Source: Tunavirus T1. Taken from it: a DNA stretch of 48,822 bases. This document shows, one piece after another, positions 25,044-34,867 of the stretch. The stretch is from the sequence record MN153797.1; one strand, given 5' to 3'. The position numbers and the translations under genes are program-made. The notes below the pieces were generated by a model. That model saw only the letters and a program-made list of their open reading frames with translations. It was not told where the DNA came from and did not search any database. Position 1 is the first letter of the stretch; each line of letters begins with the position of its first letter.

Positions 25044-28000
25044 ATGATTCAAAAAGTGATAAGCGGATCTAAAGGTGGGTCACAGAAGCCTCATAACCCA
25101 GTTGAGATGGAGGACAATCTAATCTCAATCAACAAAATCAAGATCCTGTTAGCTGTATCTGATGGTGAAATTGACGAAACATTCAGCCTGAAGCAGTTGA
25201 TGTTTAACTCAGTCCCGGTGCAAAACGAGGATGGCTCATTTAACTTCGAGGGAGTAAAGGCAGAGTTCAGACCTGGGACGCAGACTCAGGAATATATCAA
25301 GGGAATGGAAGATAGCTCTAGTGAGGTAACTGTAAATCGTGAGGTTACTACCGATAACCCATACACAATCTCAGTAACCAACAAAACGCTGTCGGCAATC
25401 CGTATCAAAATGTTCATGCCTCGCGGCGTACGAATTGAAAGTAACGGTGATAAAAATGGCGTAAGAGTTGAGTATGAGGTGCAACAAGCTGTTGATGGCG
25501 GCTCGTTTGAGACGGTGCTCACCGATGTAATCGAAGGCAAAACAATGTCAGGTTACGATCGGAGCAGACGTGTAAACCTACCTAACTTCAACAATCAGGT
25601 GATATTCAGAGTGGTTCGGAAAACTCCAGACTCTAACGACTCGAACGTTGTTGACGCGATTCAGGTAAAGAGCTATGCCGAGGTGATTGATGCCAAATTC
25701 CGTTATCCGCTGACTGGTCTTCTTTTTGTCGAGTTTGATTCGAAGATGTTCCCAAACCAGTTACCTACGATCTCAATTCGTAAGCGCTGGAAGATTGTAA
25801 ACGTTCCGTCAAACTATGATCCAGAATCACGAACTTATAACGGAAATTGGGATGGAACTTTTAAGAAGGCATGGACGAATAATCCGGCCTGGGTGCTTTA
25901 TGACCTGATGATTAATCAGCGTTATGGCTTGGATCAGAAAGAGCTTGGTATCGCTGTAGATAAATGGGCGCTCTACGAGGCTGCGCAATATTGCGATCAG
26001 ATGGTTCCTGATGGGAAGGGCGGGACGGAACCTCGATACCTTTGCGACGTGATAATCCAGTCTCAGACTGACGCTTACAAGGTTATCCGAGATATTTGCT
26101 CAATCTTTCGTGGTATGAGCTTTTGGAATGGTGAGAGCATTTCGGTAATCATCGACAGGCCGCGTGAACCTGCGTACATCTTCACTAACGACAACGTTGT
26201 TAATGGTGACTTCTCCTACACGTTCGCAAGCGAAAAGAGCATGTACACGACGTGTAATGTGATGTTTGATGATGAACAAAACATGTATCAGCAGGACGTT
26301 GAGCCAGTATTCGATCGTGAGGCTACTCTACGGTTTGGGAACAACGTTACGAGCATTACAGCGATCGGTTGCACACGTCGAAGCGAGGCCAACCGACGCG
26401 GGAGATGGATTCTGAAAACTAACCTCCGCAGCACTACGGTAAACTTCGCTACCGGGCTTGAGGGCATGATCCCGACAATCGGAGATGTTGTGGCAATAGC
26501 TGATAACTTCTGGTCAAGTAACTTGACAATGAACCTGTCAGGGCGTTTGCTCGAAGTGTCTGGAAGTCAGATTTTCTTGCCGTTCCGGGTGGATGCACGC
26601 GCTGGTGACTTTATTATCGTAAATAAGCCAGATGGCAAGCCTGTGAAGCGCACAATCTCAAGTGTTAGTGCGGATGGTAAGACTATAGAGGTTAACATTG
26701 GCTTTGGCTTTCCTGTGAAGCCTAACACGGTATTCGCTATCGACCGCACCGACATTGCGTTACAGCAGTACGTCGTGACAAAAATCGATAAGGGCGATGA
26801 TGATGAGGAATTTACCTACAAAATAACGGCGGTGGAGTACGATCCTAACAAGTATGATGAGATTGATTACGGAGTTAACATCGACGACCGACCGACGAGC
26901 ATCGTTGAACCAGATCAGATCCCTAGACCGAAAAATGTGCAAGTATCCTCAGAGTCGAGAATCGTCCAGGGGATGAGCGTAGAAACGATGATTGTTAGCT
27001 GGGATAAAGTTCCGTACGCTGTTTTCTATGACGTCCAGTGGCGAAAGGATAACGGCAACTGGCAAAATGTACCGCAGACAGCAAACAAAGAGGTATACGT
27101 TGAAGGTATTTACGCTGGCAACTATCAGGTTCGCGTTCGCTCAGTCGCTGGTTCGGGCACGACTTCAGGCTGGTCAAATATCGTCGCGGCAACGTTGACG
27201 GGTAAACAGGGTGAACCGGGCCGACCGATTAACCTCACAGCTACGGATGATGTTGTTTTTGGTATCCGTACAAAATGGGGGTTCTCTGATGGTTCTGGAG
27301 ATACAGCCTATACAGAGTTGCAACAGTCACCGGATGGAACAGTGGATAACGCAAGTTTGCTTTCTTTGATTCCGTATCCGCAGCATGAGTATTATCACTC
27401 ACCAATGCCTGGAGGGAATATTGTTTGGTATCGGGTAAGGATGGTTGACAGGATCGGTAACGTGTCTCAGTGGACTGATTTTGTCAGAGGTATGGCATCA
27501 ACAAACGTTGACGATATCATTGGGGAGATTTCTGTTGATATCGAAAACTCACCTGGTTACGAGTGGCTTGTTGATAACGCAACAGACAACGCGGCGCAGA
27601 ACTCAGCTAACGCAGAGGCAGCAATAGAAAACGCGCTCGCCAATGACAAAGACGCGATCTACATGAAGAAGGAGAACGGAAAACGAAAAGCTGAGTACAC
27701 GAAATCACTGAAACTTATTGCTGATGAGACGCAGGCACGAGTGACGGCGATCGAGCAATTGAAGGCAAGTTTTGGCGATCAGATTAGCGCTAGCAACAGC
27801 GAGCTGCGTGAGGTTATCGCAACCGAGACTGAAGCACTATCGCGTGAGATTGACCAGCTTAAGGCTCAGATTGGTGACGATATTCAGGCAAGTCTGACTG
27901 ATATTCGGGAGGTTATCGCAACCGAGACTGAAGCACTATCGCGTGAGATTGACCAGCTTAAGGCTCAGATTGGTGACGATATTCAGGCAAGTCTGACTGA

Positions 28001-28562
28001 TATTCGGGAGGCTATCGCGAACGAGACTGAGGCTAGAACGCAAGCTGACTTAACACTTAGCGCGCGGCTTGGAAATAACGAGGCGGCACTTGCTCAAAAA
28101 CTAGACTCGTGGAGTAACGCGGATTCTACTGGTGCAATGTACGGTGTCAAGTTGGGTCTGAAATACAACGGCCAGGAATACAGTGCAGGCATGGCTATGT
28201 CTCTAGTTGGTTCCGGAGCTGCGGTTAAGGCGCAGATTTTGTTTGAGGCGTCACGATTTGCCATCATGACTGGAATGAATGGTCAGACTCAGTACCCCTT
28301 CGTTGTTGAGAATGGTCAGGTTATTTTAAGTAGCGCGATTATCAAGAACGGATTCATCACCAACGCAATGATTGGAAACTTCATCCAGTCGAATAACTAT
28401 GTATTTAACCAGTCCGGATGGAGGCTTGACAAGGGTGGAACATTCGAAAATTGCGGAAGTGACGGTGAGGGTGCAATGAAGCAAACTAATACCACAATAT
28501 CTGTTAGGGATGCGAGTGGTCGCCTGAGGGTTCAGATTGGCAGGTTGACTGGCTCATGGTAA
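25044..28562 (+). CDS. central tail fiber / host specificity protein (lambda J-like)
   Basis: 1172-aa ORF after M-L-K-I block; contains in-frame 99-bp tandem repeat. Confidence 0.8.
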   Translation: MIQKVISGSKGGSQKPHNPVEMEDNLISINKIKILLAVSDGEIDETFSLKQLMFNSVPVQNEDGSFNFEGVKAEFRPGTQTQEYIKGMEDSSSEVTVNREVTTDNPYTISVTNKTLSAIRIKMFMPRGVRIESNGDKNGVRVEYEVQQAVDGGSFETVLTDVIEGKTMSGYDRSRRVNLPNFNNQVIFRVVRKTPDSNDSNVVDAIQVKSYAEVIDAKFRYPLTGLLFVEFDSKMFPNQLPTISIRKRWKIVNVPSNYDPESRTYNGNWDGTFKKAWTNNPAWVLYDLMINQRYGLDQKELGIAVDKWALYEAAQYCDQMVPDGKGGTEPRYLCDVIIQSQTDAYKVIRDICSIFRGMSFWNGESISVIIDRPREPAYIFTNDNVVNGDFSYTFASEKSMYTTCNVMFDDEQNMYQQDVEPVFDREATLRFGNNVTSITAIGCTRRSEANRRGRWILKTNLRSTTVNFATGLEGMIPTIGDVVAIADNFWSSNLTMNLSGRLLEVSGSQIFLPFRVDARAGDFIIVNKPDGKPVKRTISSVSADGKTIEVNIGFGFPVKPNTVFAIDRTDIALQQYVVTKIDKGDDDEEFTYKITAVEYDPNKYDEIDYGVNIDDRPTSIVEPDQIPRPKNVQVSSESRIVQGMSVETMIVSWDKVPYAVFYDVQWRKDNGNWQNVPQTANKEVYVEGIYAGNYQVRVRSVAGSGTTSGWSNIVAATLTGKQGEPGRPINLTATDDVVFGIRTKWGFSDGSGDTAYTELQQSPDGTVDNASLLSLIPYPQHEYYHSPMPGGNIVWYRVRMVDRIGNVSQWTDFVRGMASTNVDDIIGEISVDIENSPGYEWLVDNATDNAAQNSANAEAAIENALANDKDAIYMKKENGKRKAEYTKSLKLIADETQARVTAIEQLKASFGDQISASNSELREVIATETEALSREIDQLKAQIGDDIQASLTDIREVIATETEALSREIDQLKAQIGDDIQASLTDIREAIANETEARTQADLTLSARLGNNEAALAQKLDSWSNADSTGAMYGVKLGLKYNGQEYSAGMAMSLVGSGAAVKAQILFEASRFAIMTGMNGQTQYPFVVENGQVILSSAIIKNGFITNAMIGNFIQSNNYVFNQSGWRLDKGGTFENCGSDGEGAMKQTNTTISVRDASGRLRVQIGRLTGSW
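27811..28008 (+). repeat. Perfect 99-bp tandem duplication (2 copies plus a diverged partial third) inside the J-like gene
   Basis: Unit aggttatcgcaaccgagactgaagcactatcgcgtgagattgaccagcttaaggctcagattggtgacgatattcaggcaagtctgactgatattcggg repeats at 27811 and 27910; encodes the same 33-aa segment twice. Confidence 0.85.
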
Positions 28563-30378: not shown

Positions 30379-31443
30379 ATGTTCCATGTATTCACATCAA
30401 GCCAGCTTTCTAACGACGAGTATCATAGAAACGAAGGTTGGGCGTCAGAGTATGTAAGCGGATCGAGTCTTGCAGAAATTTATCAGACCTGCCCTGCTAA
30501 CTGGAGATTCAAGAAGAACGAGACAACGAAAACTCTGGAGTTCGGTACTCAGTCGCACACCAACTTTGAGAGTCGAGATCTGTTTACTGCAACGTATGCT
30601 AGATGCCCTGCTCCGTCAGAGTTTAAGGATCTGATTACTTCGCAGGCGGCGCTGGCAGCAAAATTAAAATCATTCGGCCTGAAAGGTACATCCGGTAAGC
30701 AGTACCCGGACCTCATCAAAATGATGGTTGATTGTGGTGAAGAACTCAACGTTCAATACCTGATTGAACTGATCGCAGAAGCTGAGGCCCGTGCTGAAGG
30801 AAAACAACTTGTTGACGCGGACAAATACGACGCTTGCATGAAGATGAGAGTCATCCTTGAGCAGAATCCCGATCATGAAGCGTGCATCAACAGTGAAACG
30901 GCGCAGCGTGAGATTTCAATCTTCGGTGAGATATCCGGCGTAAAAGTTAAGGTTCGACTTGACCATCTGGACTACAAAGAGAATGTTCCAGGTCGTGTCC
31001 TGACTGGTTATGATGAGAATGGCGATCCGGTATTTGAAGACGTAATTTTCCCGGAAGCACTGATTATCACAGATTTCAAAACTACGATGAGCGCCAACCC
31101 GTTAGAGTTCCCGAGACTGGCATACAATCACGGCTATTACCTGAAGATGGCATTGCAGCATGACCTGCTACGACGCGCAATCCAGGCTGGAGCTTTTGAA
31201 GGTAACTTCCCGGAAGACATTCCGATCGTGGTTCGATTGCTTGCGCAGGAGAAAAAAGAGCCTTATATCGCACTGGCTTACCGTATGACTATGGAGCAAA
31301 TCAGGATAGGTCGTAACCAGTACATTAGCGTAGTCCACACTTACAAGGCTTGCTCTGAAATGGATGTTTGGCCTGGGTACGCTGGCGACGCAAGCGAGAT
31401 CGAACTTGAAACGCCATCATGGGTGCGTTACCAAAATAAGTAA
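30379..31443 (+). CDS. recombination exonuclease (PD-(D/E)XK, RecB/RecE-like)
   Basis: Motif IITDFKTT resembles RecB-family (I/V)xDYKT; sits upstream of Erf and SSB. Confidence 0.5.
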   Translation: MFHVFTSSQLSNDEYHRNEGWASEYVSGSSLAEIYQTCPANWRFKKNETTKTLEFGTQSHTNFESRDLFTATYARCPAPSEFKDLITSQAALAAKLKSFGLKGTSGKQYPDLIKMMVDCGEELNVQYLIELIAEAEARAEGKQLVDADKYDACMKMRVILEQNPDHEACINSETAQREISIFGEISGVKVKVRLDHLDYKENVPGRVLTGYDENGDPVFEDVIFPEALIITDFKTTMSANPLEFPRLAYNHGYYLKMALQHDLLRRAIQAGAFEGNFPEDIPIVVRLLAQEKKEPYIALAYRMTMEQIRIGRNQYISVVHTYKACSEMDVWPGYAGDASEIELETPSWVRYQNK

Positions 31444-31517
31444 ACGGCATAAATAGCTAAACAAATAATTAATGAGGTGTTATAATGCACCTCATACACC
31501 AATCAGGAGAAGTTAAG

Positions 31518-32165
31518 ATGCAATTATCACCAGAAACAAACGAAATCCTTCCCGCACTGTTCAATGCTCGCAATAAATTTGCTAAAGCAAAGAAGGACGC
31601 AAAAAACAATCACCTGAAAAATTCATACGCAACTCTTGATGCAATGATGGCTGCGGTTAGTCCGGCGCTAACCGACAACGATATTATGATCCTGCAATCA
31701 ATGCTGGACACCAGCACTGAAACAACCTTCCATCTTGAAACGATGCTGATTCACAAATCCGGGCAGTGGGCCAAATTCTTCATGATGATGCCGATTGCAA
31801 AGCGCGATCCGCAAGGCGTAGGTTCTGCAATGACGTATGCTCGACGTTACTCATTAGCCGCAGCGCTGGGGATTAGCCAGAGTGATGACGATGCTCAGCT
31901 TGCAGTGAAATCCGTCAAGGACTGGAAAAAAGAACTTGATGCGTGTGAAGACATCGAGTCACTGAAAGATGTATGGGCCAACGCTTACCGCCAGACTGAC
32001 ACGGCGAGCAAGTCAATCATTCAGGATCACTACAACGCATTGAAGGCTAAATTTGAGATCGGTAAAGCTCGCGGCATTCGCCCGGCGCAACCGGAACAGA
32101 AAAAACAGGTTGAAGCAACAAGCGCGAAGCCTGTACAATCCCAATCAATCACCAACTTCGAATAA
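31518..32165 (+). CDS. erf: single-strand annealing protein (Erf-like)
   Basis: ATG 31518 with RBS caggagaag; motif GSAMTYARRYSL; sits between exonuclease and SSB. Confidence 0.5.
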   Translation: MQLSPETNEILPALFNARNKFAKAKKDAKNNHLKNSYATLDAMMAAVSPALTDNDIMILQSMLDTSTETTFHLETMLIHKSGQWAKFFMMMPIAKRDPQGVGSAMTYARRYSLAAALGISQSDDDAQLAVKSVKDWKKELDACEDIESLKDVWANAYRQTDTASKSIIQDHYNALKAKFEIGKARGIRPAQPEQKKQVEATSAKPVQSQSITNFE

Positions 32166-32211: not shown

Positions 32212-32634
32212 ATGCATATTATCACTGGCGAGATCCGCAAAGAACCAAAGATTCTTGAACGTAACGGCGGCAATACTTATATTATCGAACTGGCAGAAAG
32301 CTATAAGCCTCGTGATGGCGATCGCGAATACACCAACTACACGTTCTTTTTTAGCGACGGTGGGAAGCCAGGCCTTGCTGACTGGTATCGTGAAGCGTTC
32401 CAAGTTGGTCGAGTTATCTCAGTATCGTGCGAGACGTTGAAGATCTCATCACGCGAACACAACGGAATGATTTACAATTCATTGCAGGCGGCTGACTTCC
32501 CTAAACTAGTATTTAGTCAACGAGGTCAAAGCAACCAGCAACAACGAGCGCCTCAGCAACAACAGCGTTCTCAGCAGCAATCACAACCAAAACCAAATCA
32601 ACAATCAACATTTGACGACGATATTCCATTCTAA
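32212..32634 (+). CDS. ssb: single-stranded DNA-binding protein
   Basis: OB-fold-sized N-terminus, Gln-rich linker, C-terminus DDDIPF (canonical SSB tail). Confidence 0.75.
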   Translation: MHIITGEIRKEPKILERNGGNTYIIELAESYKPRDGDREYTNYTFFFSDGGKPGLADWYREAFQVGRVISVSCETLKISSREHNGMIYNSLQAADFPKLVFSQRGQSNQQQRAPQQQQRSQQQSQPKPNQQSTFDDDIPF

Positions 32635-32695: not shown

Positions 32696-34312
32696 CTACG
32701 TATTTTTTAAGCTTTCAACAAACTCTCCAGATACCATTCTTTCATGATTTCTTTTGCACTCTTCAACCTTCTTGTTGTAAATCGAGTCATTAGGCATCTC
32801 AACTCGAACGCTAACAAAAACATCACTCGGAATGTCAATAGGATCTCCGTCGCTATACCCATCCTTATGATTTCTTGCGAATGAAGGCGCGTTATCATGA
32901 GTTCTATGATAAGTCTTGATAACCAAAGACCCATCAGGGTTAACATCATAATCTACCCACAATATAGGCTGTCCGTTAATGTCTTTTGGTATCTCTATGC
33001 CACCATTAACACCACCCCACGCTAGATCAGAATTTAGTGATAAACACCCCCTTATCAAATACTCGCCAGTAGAAATCCTCTCAACTGTACAACCTTCGCT
33101 CTCGTCGTTTGTTCTATGGCTCCCGTTGCCAAAAATATCAACGATGGGCGAGGCTCTTTTTATAAATCCGTTAGAGTCAACGGTTGTATTGCCTGTATTC
33201 CATATAACCTGGGTAGATTGCCATTGCCCCGCTCCTGTCTGTTTTCTGAGCCTCACATCCTTATAGTGTGGAGAGGTCATTGATGCGTCTTCAATAACAA
33301 AACCGAAAGCACTACCATCTCCTTGACCGTTTCTATGACGAACAGATATAGCTGTGACCCATCCAACAGAATTAACATTGTAACTTGCAAGGCTGCTAGG
33401 CTGAGATGATAAGGCGTTAACATAATCTACCCAGCTTGATTTCTCGTTAGATGCCGGACTTGATACAACGTTACCGGAAGAACTTGCCTGAAACGGTATC
33501 CACGGAGAAAACTTTGCATTATTGCCGTTTTTCATCCTTATGTAAAAAGTGCCGCGACCCGCTCTTGCGTATTCGTTTTGAGAATTTCCAGATTCTGGGT
33601 CAGTACCCAAATAAGTAAAAGGCGTAAATCTCTGAATGCAAGCGCTTGCACCGTTAGCTCCATTAGGAAGAACCTCAAGCATACCTGCCGTAGCCTCAGG
33701 ATAGCCCCTACTAGCGGTAGCTAAAGCACTTGATGATTGCATATATATTCCAGGGCCATCACCTTCACCAGTTATTGAATCAAGATGTTTTTCCCCTAAG
33801 TTAGTTCTATCAAGTTTGTAAACCTTTAGGCTTGTCCTTGCCTGCTCCTCGGTAGTTCCACCAGTGCCACCAAAATTAACCCCTAGAGCCTTGTTTTCAC
33901 TTCCATCATGAGTCATGGCGCCCCAGTCGCCGCTATCCTTGACGATCAGCTTAAATCCGGTCCTATCGTCATTTGAATAGATTTCCGTTAAATCTCCGCG
34001 AGGTTGATTTAATCTATTTACTGCTAGATTTTTCTTTGATTGCTCCTTGTCAGCAAGGCCAGAAAGATTTCCGTCCTTAGTTAAAAGATTGTCAGCATTA
34101 ACGCTATTTGCTGCGTCCTGAGCTTCCTGAGCACTTACCGCTGCCGCGTCTTTAGCGCTAACCGCCGCATCGCGTGCTGCCTGGGCATCGTTTTTTGCTG
34201 AGGTTGCAGTTTGCGCCGCAGTCTGAGCATCATTAACATAGCCAGATAGATCGCCTTTAGCGTCATTAATTTCTTGAACGATATTGTTCAGTGTCCATAT
34301 CAAGATCGGCAA
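32696..34312 (-). CDS. tail fiber protein, C-terminal fragment (no ATG, no RBS; TTG is the first in-frame start)
   Basis: 538-aa ORF; N-terminus repeats the C-terminus of 34412..34867; Ala/Gln-rich coiled region then Gly/Ser/Asn-rich distal domain. Confidence 0.6.
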   Translation of the reverse strand: MPILIWTLNNIVQEINDAKGDLSGYVNDAQTAAQTATSAKNDAQAARDAAVSAKDAAAVSAQEAQDAANSVNADNLLTKDGNLSGLADKEQSKKNLAVNRLNQPRGDLTEIYSNDDRTGFKLIVKDSGDWGAMTHDGSENKALGVNFGGTGGTTEEQARTSLKVYKLDRTNLGEKHLDSITGEGDGPGIYMQSSSALATASRGYPEATAGMLEVLPNGANGASACIQRFTPFTYLGTDPESGNSQNEYARAGRGTFYIRMKNGNNAKFSPWIPFQASSSGNVVSSPASNEKSSWVDYVNALSSQPSSLASYNVNSVGWVTAISVRHRNGQGDGSAFGFVIEDASMTSPHYKDVRLRKQTGAGQWQSTQVIWNTGNTTVDSNGFIKRASPIVDIFGNGSHRTNDESEGCTVERISTGEYLIRGCLSLNSDLAWGGVNGGIEIPKDINGQPILWVDYDVNPDGSLVIKTYHRTHDNAPSFARNHKDGYSDGDPIDIPSDVFVSVRVEMPNDSIYNKKVEECKRNHERMVSGEFVESLKNT

Positions 34313-34330
34313 TAATATCCATGCCGATGC
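34197..34330. repeat. Direct repeat copy A (134 bp) of tail fiber coding sequence
   Basis: Matches 34418-34555 except three small indels (agt/tgag, gtg/gttg, cca/ccaa). Confidence 0.8.
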
Positions 34331-34355
34331 AGATTAGTGATAGCCTTGTCGGTTG

Positions 34356-34402
34356 CTGAATAAATAAAAAAAATAGGGGCCCCCCCCCCCTTTTTTATTC
34401 AG
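34356..34402. other. Palindromic element ctgaataaa-taaaaaaaa-tagggg-C11-ttt-tttattcag between the two repeat copies
   Basis: Inverted arms 34356-34364 and 34394-34402; homopolymers A8, G4, C11, T6 read directly. Confidence 0.8.
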
Positions 34403-34411
34403 ATAGACACG

Positions 34412-34867
34412 TCACGTGCTGAGGTTGCTGAGTTGCGCCGCAGTCTGAGCATCATTAACATAGCCAGATAGATCGCCTTTAGCGTCATTAATTTCTTGAA
34501 CGATATTGTTCAGGTTGTCCATATCAAGATCGGCAATAATATCCAATGCCGATGCGATCTCAGTCTCTTTGCTCTGGTAGTACCGAAGCGTCTCAGCGAC
34601 GTTTTGCGCAAGACCGTTAACGGTCAATGAATCGTTAAGCAAGATCACATACTTACCGTCAGCGGCAGTCTGACCATCCGTAGAGATAGCCTTTAGCTCT
34701 GTGTCGCTCACAATGTCGCTGATTACCGCCAGTTTAATTGGTTGCTCCAGGAATACGATAGTTGCACCGACTCGAATCAGAGCAAGCTGATCTTTCCATT
34801 TTGTATCGGTTCCGTGAACCGTACCGTCTGCATCCATTGATGCAGTACCGCGTCTATATAAAGCCAT
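34412..34867 (-). CDS. tail fiber protein, N-terminal fragment (151 aa) ending just after repeat copy B
   Basis: ATG 34867 with RBS aaggag; C-terminal ..LNNIVQEINDAKGDLSGYVNDAQTAAQ duplicated at start of 32696..34312. Confidence 0.55.
   Translation of the reverse strand: MALYRRGTASMDADGTVHGTDTKWKDQLALIRVGATIVFLEQPIKLAVISDIVSDTELKAISTDGQTAADGKYVILLNDSLTVNGLAQNVAETLRYYQSKETEIASALDIIADLDMDNLNNIVQEINDAKGDLSGYVNDAQTAAQLSNLST
34418..34555. repeat. Direct repeat copy B (138 bp) of tail fiber coding sequence
   Basis: See copy A. Confidence 0.8.

Follow-up and report, generated by a model that had tools for sequence, protein, structure and literature searches.

An exact in-frame 99-bp tandem duplication in the central tail fibre gene of coliphage T1: probably a recent gain of one helical shaft module

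Why does the gene for the central tail fibre of a T1 phage carry the same 99 bp twice in immediate succession: is the repeat real; how and when did it arise; what does the added segment change in the fibre; and does that change matter for the choice of receptor? The stretch that raises these questions (record MN153797.1, 48,822 bases, analysed in full and called the window below) is collinear with the genome of Escherichia phage T1 MK213796 (48,836 bp), to which it is 99.86-99.9% identical with 63 mismatches, save for a rearranged stretch at 34279-34487, and is, as judged from this comparison, a variant of coliphage T1. The answer favoured here, at a probability that we would put at about 0.8, is that the duplication is real and evolutionarily recent and that it added, in frame, one 33-residue module to the helical coiled-coil shaft of the fibre protein gp33, as an ordinary module gain. 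The features on which the argument first leans are the following:

25044 to 28562, plus strand: the J-like central tail fibre gene, T1 gp33, 1172 amino acids (aa) (open reading frame list; Pfam; PDB 9l9p chain S; T1 DNA)
27810 to 27908, plus strand: unit u1, the first copy of the duplicated 99-bp/33-aa module (direct comparison; Tandem Repeats Finder, TRF)
27909 to 28007, plus strand: unit u2, the second copy, identical to u1 and missing from about 57 related phage records (direct comparison; alignment of the relatives)

When compared directly, 27810-27908 and 27909-28007 are identical at 99/99 nt, and TRF reports a single array in the region (27810-28030, period 99, 2.2 copies, score 421), within which the perfect period-99 tract runs over 202 nt, from 27810 to 28011. 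Each copy encodes EVIATETEALSREIDQLKAQIGDDIQASLTDIR (J residues 923-955 and 956-988), the unit start in codon phase being 27810, since 27810-25044 is divisible by 3. The perfect in-frame duplication that had been called in the initial annotation is thereby borne out, also in the GenBank T1 records; the coordinates given there, 27811-27909 and 27910-28008, delimit identical strings as well, because the perfect tract is longer than two units, but lie 1 nt off the codon phase. An exact tandem repeat of 99 nt cannot be produced by chance. No open reading frame (ORF) of at least 60 aa lies opposite the repeat in the ORF list, and the 99-nt unit forms no unusual DNA hairpin (it folds no better than shuffled sequences, z = -0.73), so that a hairpin as the driver of slippage was rejected.

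The gene itself is identified by its Pfam matches (FNIII-A_GpJ, E 2e-38; Phage-tail_3, E 3.1e-24; and, at residues 1016-1151, the C-terminal Phage_Tail_Tip domain, DUF1983, PF09327, E 5.2e-48) and by its alignment over residues 1-1172 with chain S of PDB 9l9p, the T1 "putative tail fiber protein", from which only residues 800 and 1137 differ (M and C in the window, T and Y in 9l9p). Its DNA is 99.8% identical to the T1 GenBank records, with four base differences from MK213796 and AY216660/NC_005833 (at 25274, 25562, 27442 and 28453), two of which correspond to the two differing residues; the window therefore represents an independent T1 sequence. An exact-protein look-up of the window's gp33 matched no contig.

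This independence bears on the most trivial explanation, namely that a single unit was wrongly expanded to two during sequencing or assembly. The assembly is not flawless, as there is a suspicious, possibly misassembled stretch elsewhere in the window (34279-34487), yet the same two copies are present in MK213796, in AY216660 (RefSeq copy NC_005833) and in the sequence deposited for PDB 9l9p, and there are 63 further differences between the window and GenBank T1, so that the duplication has been sequenced more than once, in sequences that differ from one another elsewhere. Tandem repeats are, besides, collapsed by assemblers much more often than they are expanded, and the two non-identical copies found in Shigella phage vB_SsoS_008 (see below) cannot arise by the expansion of one unit. 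We regard an artefact as hardly conceivable.

Among relatives the second copy is rare. The 198-nt query has matches in 61 records of the GenBank phage collection, and only the three T1 records and vB_SsoS_008 cover 197-198 nt of it unbroken, while in the remaining Tunavirus records (about 57) the match spans about 128 nt, that is, one unit; the outcome was no different with a query of 1163 nt. When 15 Tunavirus loci are aligned, 13 of them have a clean 99-nt gap, and a scan of IMG/VR for the junction pattern returned only T1 and vB_SsoS_008, together with four unrelated chance matches to DIREVIAT; the same scans of JGI metagenomes and GTDB genomes found nothing. The two-copy state is thus confined to two of the distinct Tunavirus genomes searched. 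Most telling is Shigella phage S2_02, where T1-type flanks (…GATATTCGG|GAGGCTATCGCG…) surround a single unit that is identical to that of T1 at 97/99 positions, and whose locus we read as the pre-duplication allele. The gradation of differences (0/99 between the T1 copies, 2/99 to the single unit of S2_02, 12-17/99 to the units of typical relatives) speaks for the recent origin that had been proposed from the identity of the copies.

The other carrier of two copies, vB_SsoS_008 (MK335533), is of a different kind, as its copies differ from each other and are identical to the T1 unit at 87/99 and 97/99 positions. Compared in windows of 100 nt, its J gene matches that of the single-copy phage Eco_BIFF at 97-100%, except for the window of copy 2, which is 98% identical to T1, and its two copies meet at the junction found in T1, GATATTCGG|GAGGTT. 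Most simply, the extra unit would be a T1-type import by recombination; an independent in-situ duplication was rejected, since the T1-type junction and the T1-like copy-2 window favour recombination. The genome is a mosaic, with an Eco_BIFF-like J, the T1-type extra unit and a receptor-binding locus unlike that of either phage. These data also bear on the view that the duplication is old and that the T1 copies have been kept identical by gene conversion (concerted evolution). The differing copies of vB_SsoS_008, at 87/99 and 97/99, can be cited in its favour, as can the genes for an exonuclease VIII-like protein and for a recombination protein that T1 has a short way downstream; however, the otherwise Eco_BIFF-like gene with its T1-like copy-2 window and T1 junction fits the import of a T1-type unit, not long independent divergence, and the restriction of the two-copy state to two genomes also argues against great age. 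Gene conversion between old copies therefore appears improbable to us, and recent duplication is kept as the preferred reading.

The identical pair does not stand alone, being flanked on both sides by similar sequences:

27711 to 27809, plus strand: u0, an old and diverged unit encoding 33 aa, KLIADETQARVTAIEQLKASFGDQISASNSELR (it shares 53/99 nt and 16/33 aa with the duplicated unit; E 1.4e-17 with a profile hidden Markov model, HMM, of the units)
28008 to 28106, plus strand: u3, likewise an old and diverged unit encoding 33 aa, EAIANETEARTQADLTLSARLGNNEAALAQKLD (it shares 48/99 nt and 11/33 aa with u2; unit HMM E 2.9e-15)

The aa identities of u0 and u3 were each reached by 0 of 5000 shuffles, and the unit HMM places four adjacent 33-residue matches in T1 (E from 1e-15 to 1e-18), a number that is found among 115 proteins only in T1 and vB_SsoS_008. 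By these sequence similarities the locus is a 4 x 33-aa array, in which the identical pair lies between two old diverged units; what had been described as a diverged partial third unit is indeed diverged, but is full-length (28008-28106). When the array is stacked in rows of 11, positions 3 and 10 are hydrophobic in nearly all rows, and the hydrophobic periodicity peaks at 3.67 residues (11/3, the hendecad), a peak reached by 0 of 1000 shuffles; the power at 3.5 is close to nil. A unit therefore comprises three hendecads (nine helical turns), and the hydrophobic seam stays in register when one is added.

Such modules appear to have come and gone more than once. Among 47 IMG/VR loci compared for the spacing between the conserved anchors NGKRKAE and QKLDS, 17 have 67 aa and 24 have 100 aa, and a spacing of 133 aa occurs in T1 and vB_SsoS_008 alone; two loci have a spacing of 107 aa, with a middle unit of 40 residues. 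From these stepwise distances it follows that whole modules have been gained or lost repeatedly, T1 being the most recent gain, and the T1 duplication can be read, on sequence grounds, as the newest in a series of such gains and losses among T1-like phages, whose arrays have two, three or four units. As a side observation, the 107-aa class comprises L030, L031 and P0006, and P0010 has a spacing of 151 aa, the middle modules having 40 or 44 residues and thus exceeding 33 by a heptad or a hendecad, so that the shaft also changes by sub-module steps. The expectation that the copy number changes and alters the length of the protein thus finds comparative support: the number is not fixed, relatives having one copy or two and the wider family two, three or four units.

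How the last unit was added can be narrowed down at the level of single bases:

28008 to 28011, plus strand: GAGG microhomology at the duplication boundary (also at 27810-27813 and 27909-27912); the perfect tract ends at 28011

The start of the unit, GAGGTTATCGCAACCGAGACTGAAGC, and that of the next old unit, GAGGCTATCGCGAACGAGACTGAGGC, 99 nt apart, match at 22 of 26 positions, and between the unit start and the start of u3 there are mismatches at -1 (T against G) and at +5 (T against C). Copy 2 is identical to copy 1 from its fifth base on, and there is a mismatch (T against G) just in front of the boundary, which places the exchange inside GAGG. Most likely the duplication arose when the similar starts of two adjacent old modules paired out of register, in replication or in recombination over a short homology; the similarity around them would have helped, and the exchange would have fallen in the 4-nt GAGG. 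A gene for an exonuclease VIII-like protein and one for a "recombination protein" lie at 30379-32165 of the window, 2-3 kb downstream of the repeat, and a phage-encoded recombination system could act on the 202-nt direct repeat.

A perfect direct repeat of 202 nt is a good substrate both for slippage and for phage-encoded recombination, and one may ask whether it behaves as a hypervariable repeat of the contingency type, with high-frequency switching of copy number in T1 populations that would generate variants of fibre length. That one-copy and two-copy forms are both evidently functional in relatives would agree with this. Every T1 consensus, however, has exactly two copies (the window, two independent GenBank sequences and the 9l9p deposit), no three-copy form occurs in the phage records or IMG/VR loci examined, and the unit has, at the z given above, no unusual hairpin. 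With every available T1 sequence in the two-copy state, nothing points to fast switching, and a contingency repeat seems very improbable; a single recent duplication is the reading with which we continue.

What the extra unit would do to the protein depends on where in the fibre it lies, for which two further features are needed:

27552 to 28070, plus strand: J residues 837-1009, predicted to form one unbroken alpha-helical shaft (helix H37-209 in the AlphaFold2 model of the C-terminal fragment; period 3.67)
28089 to 28496, plus strand: C-terminal Phage_Tail_Tip domain, the beta-rich distal part of the fibre, J 1016-1151 (PF09327, E 5.2e-48; AlphaFold2 strands from J 1021; Foldseek)

The protein gp33 is the trimeric central fibre protein of T1, of which residues 13-820 were modelled as a trimer by cryo-EM (PDB 9l9p), whereas residues 821-1172 were too flexible to model and were predicted by AlphaFold3 to form a protrusion of ~370 A, "visibly longer" than lambda gpJ (PMC11945409); the word "repeat" does not occur in that 2025 structure paper (PMC11945409). 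With lambda gpJ, gp33 has in common the architecture of an N-terminal hub plus FNIII domains (PDB 8iyk, E 8.3e-116 over residues 12-707) and the C-terminal Phage_Tail_Tip domain; it differs in its "visibly longer" C-terminus (PMC11945409), and in that gpJ binds LamB directly, while in T1-like phages this task is believed to fall to a separate receptor-binding protein whose gene lies downstream (PMC8594841).

The C-terminal 372 residues were modelled with AlphaFold2 as a monomer from an alignment of 89 sequences, and the run was repeated with the single-copy relative P0001 as the target. For T1 one helix is predicted at J 837-1009 (173 residues; pLDDT 88-97 at J 881-970 and ~50-68 at J 981-1010), followed by a beta-rich domain from J 1021. 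The helix of P0001 (140 residues; H44-183, against H37-209 of T1, after a 7-residue offset) has the same ends and is exactly 33 residues shorter. The helical rise being 1.5 A per residue, we infer that the extra unit would add about 5 nm, or about 19-24% more shaft. The module would thus lengthen the helical shaft from about 140 to about 173 residues with its fold register kept, and would carry the beta domain at its distal end further from the tail tip, together with the receptor-binding protein that is believed to be mounted there. A search of PDB with Foldseek, using the C-terminal model, matched the SU10 tip fibre and the lambda gpJ central fibre (open state, 8xcj and 8xci) and did not recover the pyocin fibres; confined as they are to fibre domains of SU10 and lambda, these matches are uninformative on the shaft.

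In a sequence alignment (E 4.6e-24), residues 920-1142 of T1 (120-342 of the C-terminal fragment) correspond to 974-1194 of the F2-pyocin fibre (25vf_A), and residues 907-1084 of that fibre are, by cryo-EM, a trimeric coiled-coil shaft which also carries side fibres (bioRxiv 10.64898/2026.02.24.707460). The assignment of the repeat to a coiled region, already made in the initial annotation, is accordingly supported by three lines: the AlphaFold2 helix at J 837-1009, the period of 3.67 and the homology to the experimentally helical F-pyocin shaft.

Several points weigh against the reading given at the outset. The vB_SsoS_008 record is of low quality, with J split into six consecutive "tail fiber" coding sequences, so that frameshifts or sequencing errors are likely, and it lends the allele little support in nature; the absence of any difference between the T1 copies could also stem from gene conversion between older copies; 9l9p, the experimental structure, does not extend to T1 residues 821-1172 (PMC11945409); and both of our models are monomers, so that trimer packing is taken from homology.

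Is the extra module, then, linked to the choice of receptor, as the description of the gene as a "J-like host specificity gene" might lead one to expect? The gene is J-like, but the receptor specificity of T1-like phages has been attributed to a small locus of its own, which directly follows the J homologue and is paired with an exclusion gene of the cor type; the receptor-binding protein encoded there is thought to be displayed by the J-like protein at its distal end (PMC8594841). In the one-copy phages JMPW1, Eco_BIFF and Sfin-3 the proteins of this locus are 95-98% identical in aa sequence to those of T1, while in the two-copy vB_SsoS_008 the locus differs from that of T1; the extra module is therefore not tied to receptor choice, and a link of copy number with receptor type was rejected. 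The simplest reading of these comparisons is that the extra module may be a tolerated polymorphism of shaft length. Duplications in tape-measure proteins that lengthen tails, and the stalk repeats of trimeric autotransporter adhesins, are familiar cases in which in-frame changes by whole periods alter the length of a rod while its fold is undisturbed; the T1 unit differs from them in being three hendecads of a tail-fibre shaft.

A more ambitious interpretation is suggested by recent work on F-type pyocins, to whose central fibre protein (CFP; PA0641/F2, F7; PDB 25vf and related; PMC12874032, bioRxiv 10.64898/2026.02.24.707460) T1 gp33 is a full-length homologue (E 8.8e-223). The shaft of the F7 pyocin central fibre, a coiled coil, was shown to switch to a beta-prism, in which an 11-residue motif, SxSxxMxxLxS, recurs on every strand; killing is lost when the switch is blocked, and the same switch was predicted for 21/24 siphophage fibres, with lambda and T5 not showing it (He et al. 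2026, a preprint). According to the legend of Fig. 5b of the same study, a helical insert of 33 residues in Shfl1, and one of 40 residues in TLS, lie between strands 3 and 4; T1 and its two-copy insert are not mentioned (He et al. 2026). The CFP resembles the T1 fibre in its long helical shaft between FNIII domains and a distal beta domain (trimeric in the pyocin), in the 11-residue periodicity of the shaft and in small residues at fixed positions. It differs in its shaft of about 163-178 residues with no perfect internal duplication reported, in a register described as heptad (bioRxiv 10.64898/2026.02.24.707460), against the hendecad of the T1 array, and in that the fold switch has been shown for the pyocin only.

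Shfl1, a Tunavirus (L015), has a three-unit array with the 100-aa spacing, and as two-unit phages have u0 directly followed by u3, its "insert" is the middle module, which T1 has twice; T1 thus has two insert copies (66 residues), and that the insert stays helical is an AlphaFold prediction. The 107-aa class has, like the insert of TLS, a middle unit of 40 residues.

It is conceivable, then, that the shaft works as a "spring", its metastable coiled coil turning into a beta-prism on receptor binding as in the F7 pyocin, and that this fold switch is tuned by the extra module, in which case the T1 duplication would be adaptive, not neutral, and the number of modules (two, three or four) would set the reach, the stroke, the stored energy or the spacing of docking sites for side fibres. 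The shaft region is homologous to the F-pyocin shaft, which is a docking platform for side fibres (bioRxiv 10.64898/2026.02.24.707460); the switch is predicted in 21/24 siphophage fibres together with the 11-residue strand motif (He et al. 2026); the 33-residue insert of Shfl1 between strands 3 and 4 sits at the very module that is duplicated in T1; and in the T1 array 8 windows fit the S/S/L/S positions of the motif, against 2.1 +/- 1.4 in shuffles, only 1 of 2000 of which reaches 8. A clean alternating pattern of forward and reverse SxSxxMxxLxS strands could not, however, be derived from the unit, the motif being nearly palindromic and its parsing ambiguous. The switch in phages is a prediction, and T1 was outside that study (He et al. 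2026); both monomer AlphaFold2 runs (T1 and P0001) give helix only, in a mode that cannot probe a beta-prism state; and the inserted module is predicted to stay helical (He et al. 2026), so that it would add length, not stroke. Furthermore, copy number does not go with the receptor-binding locus, more than 50 one-copy relatives infect the same hosts, and lambda and T5 do not show the switch (He et al. 2026).

We grant such tuning a small yet appreciable likelihood. Its most specific form, in which the 33-residue module would be a quantal element of length and energy in a metastable fold-switching fibre, the series of two, three and four modules would reflect selection on reach, stroke and side-fibre spacing, and the extra module of T1 would be adaptive, is of small likelihood. 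An ordinary gain of one shaft module is the reading that we retain.

Some observations elsewhere in the window concern other loci. The sole stretch that is not collinear with GenBank T1 (34211-34545) lies in the lateral "putative tail fiber" gene (minus strand; T1 MK213796 32695..34881), where window 34279-34487 stands in place of T1 34278-34501, a perfect direct repeat of 81 nt plus 30 nt, spaced by 222-224 nt, flanks the homopolymer tract AAAAAAAATAGGGGCCCCCCCCCCCTTTTTTATT (about 34367-34400), and the 728-aa ORF is split into ORFs of 538 aa and 151 aa; judged by the sequence, this may be either a real gene lesion or an assembly artefact. Laboratory T1 has been described as fiberless (PMC11945409). 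TRF also reports an 18-nt unit in 2.5 copies (CAGCAACAACAGCGTCCT) at 32536-32580, inside a 140-aa ORF (32212..32634), and, near the left end (189-423), a (TA)n run, a 10-nt unit in 2 copies and a 9-nt unit in 2.9 copies.

As a feature of sequence, the T1 duplication is ordinary, a recent in-frame duplication of a structural period in a genome that has been public since 2004. Its value lies in what it may be used for. The flexible C-terminus of the T1 fibre, which escaped modelling in the cryo-EM structure, contains 66 residues of exactly repeated sequence, and this complicates the assignment of register in maps and models. S2_02 or JMPW1, on the one hand, and T1, on the other, differ by exactly one module on the same receptor-binding locus, a near-isogenic contrast, and T1 and its one-copy relatives, with the same flanks and the same receptor-binding locus, are thus a ready-made pair differing by one 5-nm module. 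This module lies in the part of the fibre for which recent pyocin work has proposed an energy store that acts by fold switching, which makes the role of shaft length in these phages testable, including whether the "insert" modules join the fold switch.

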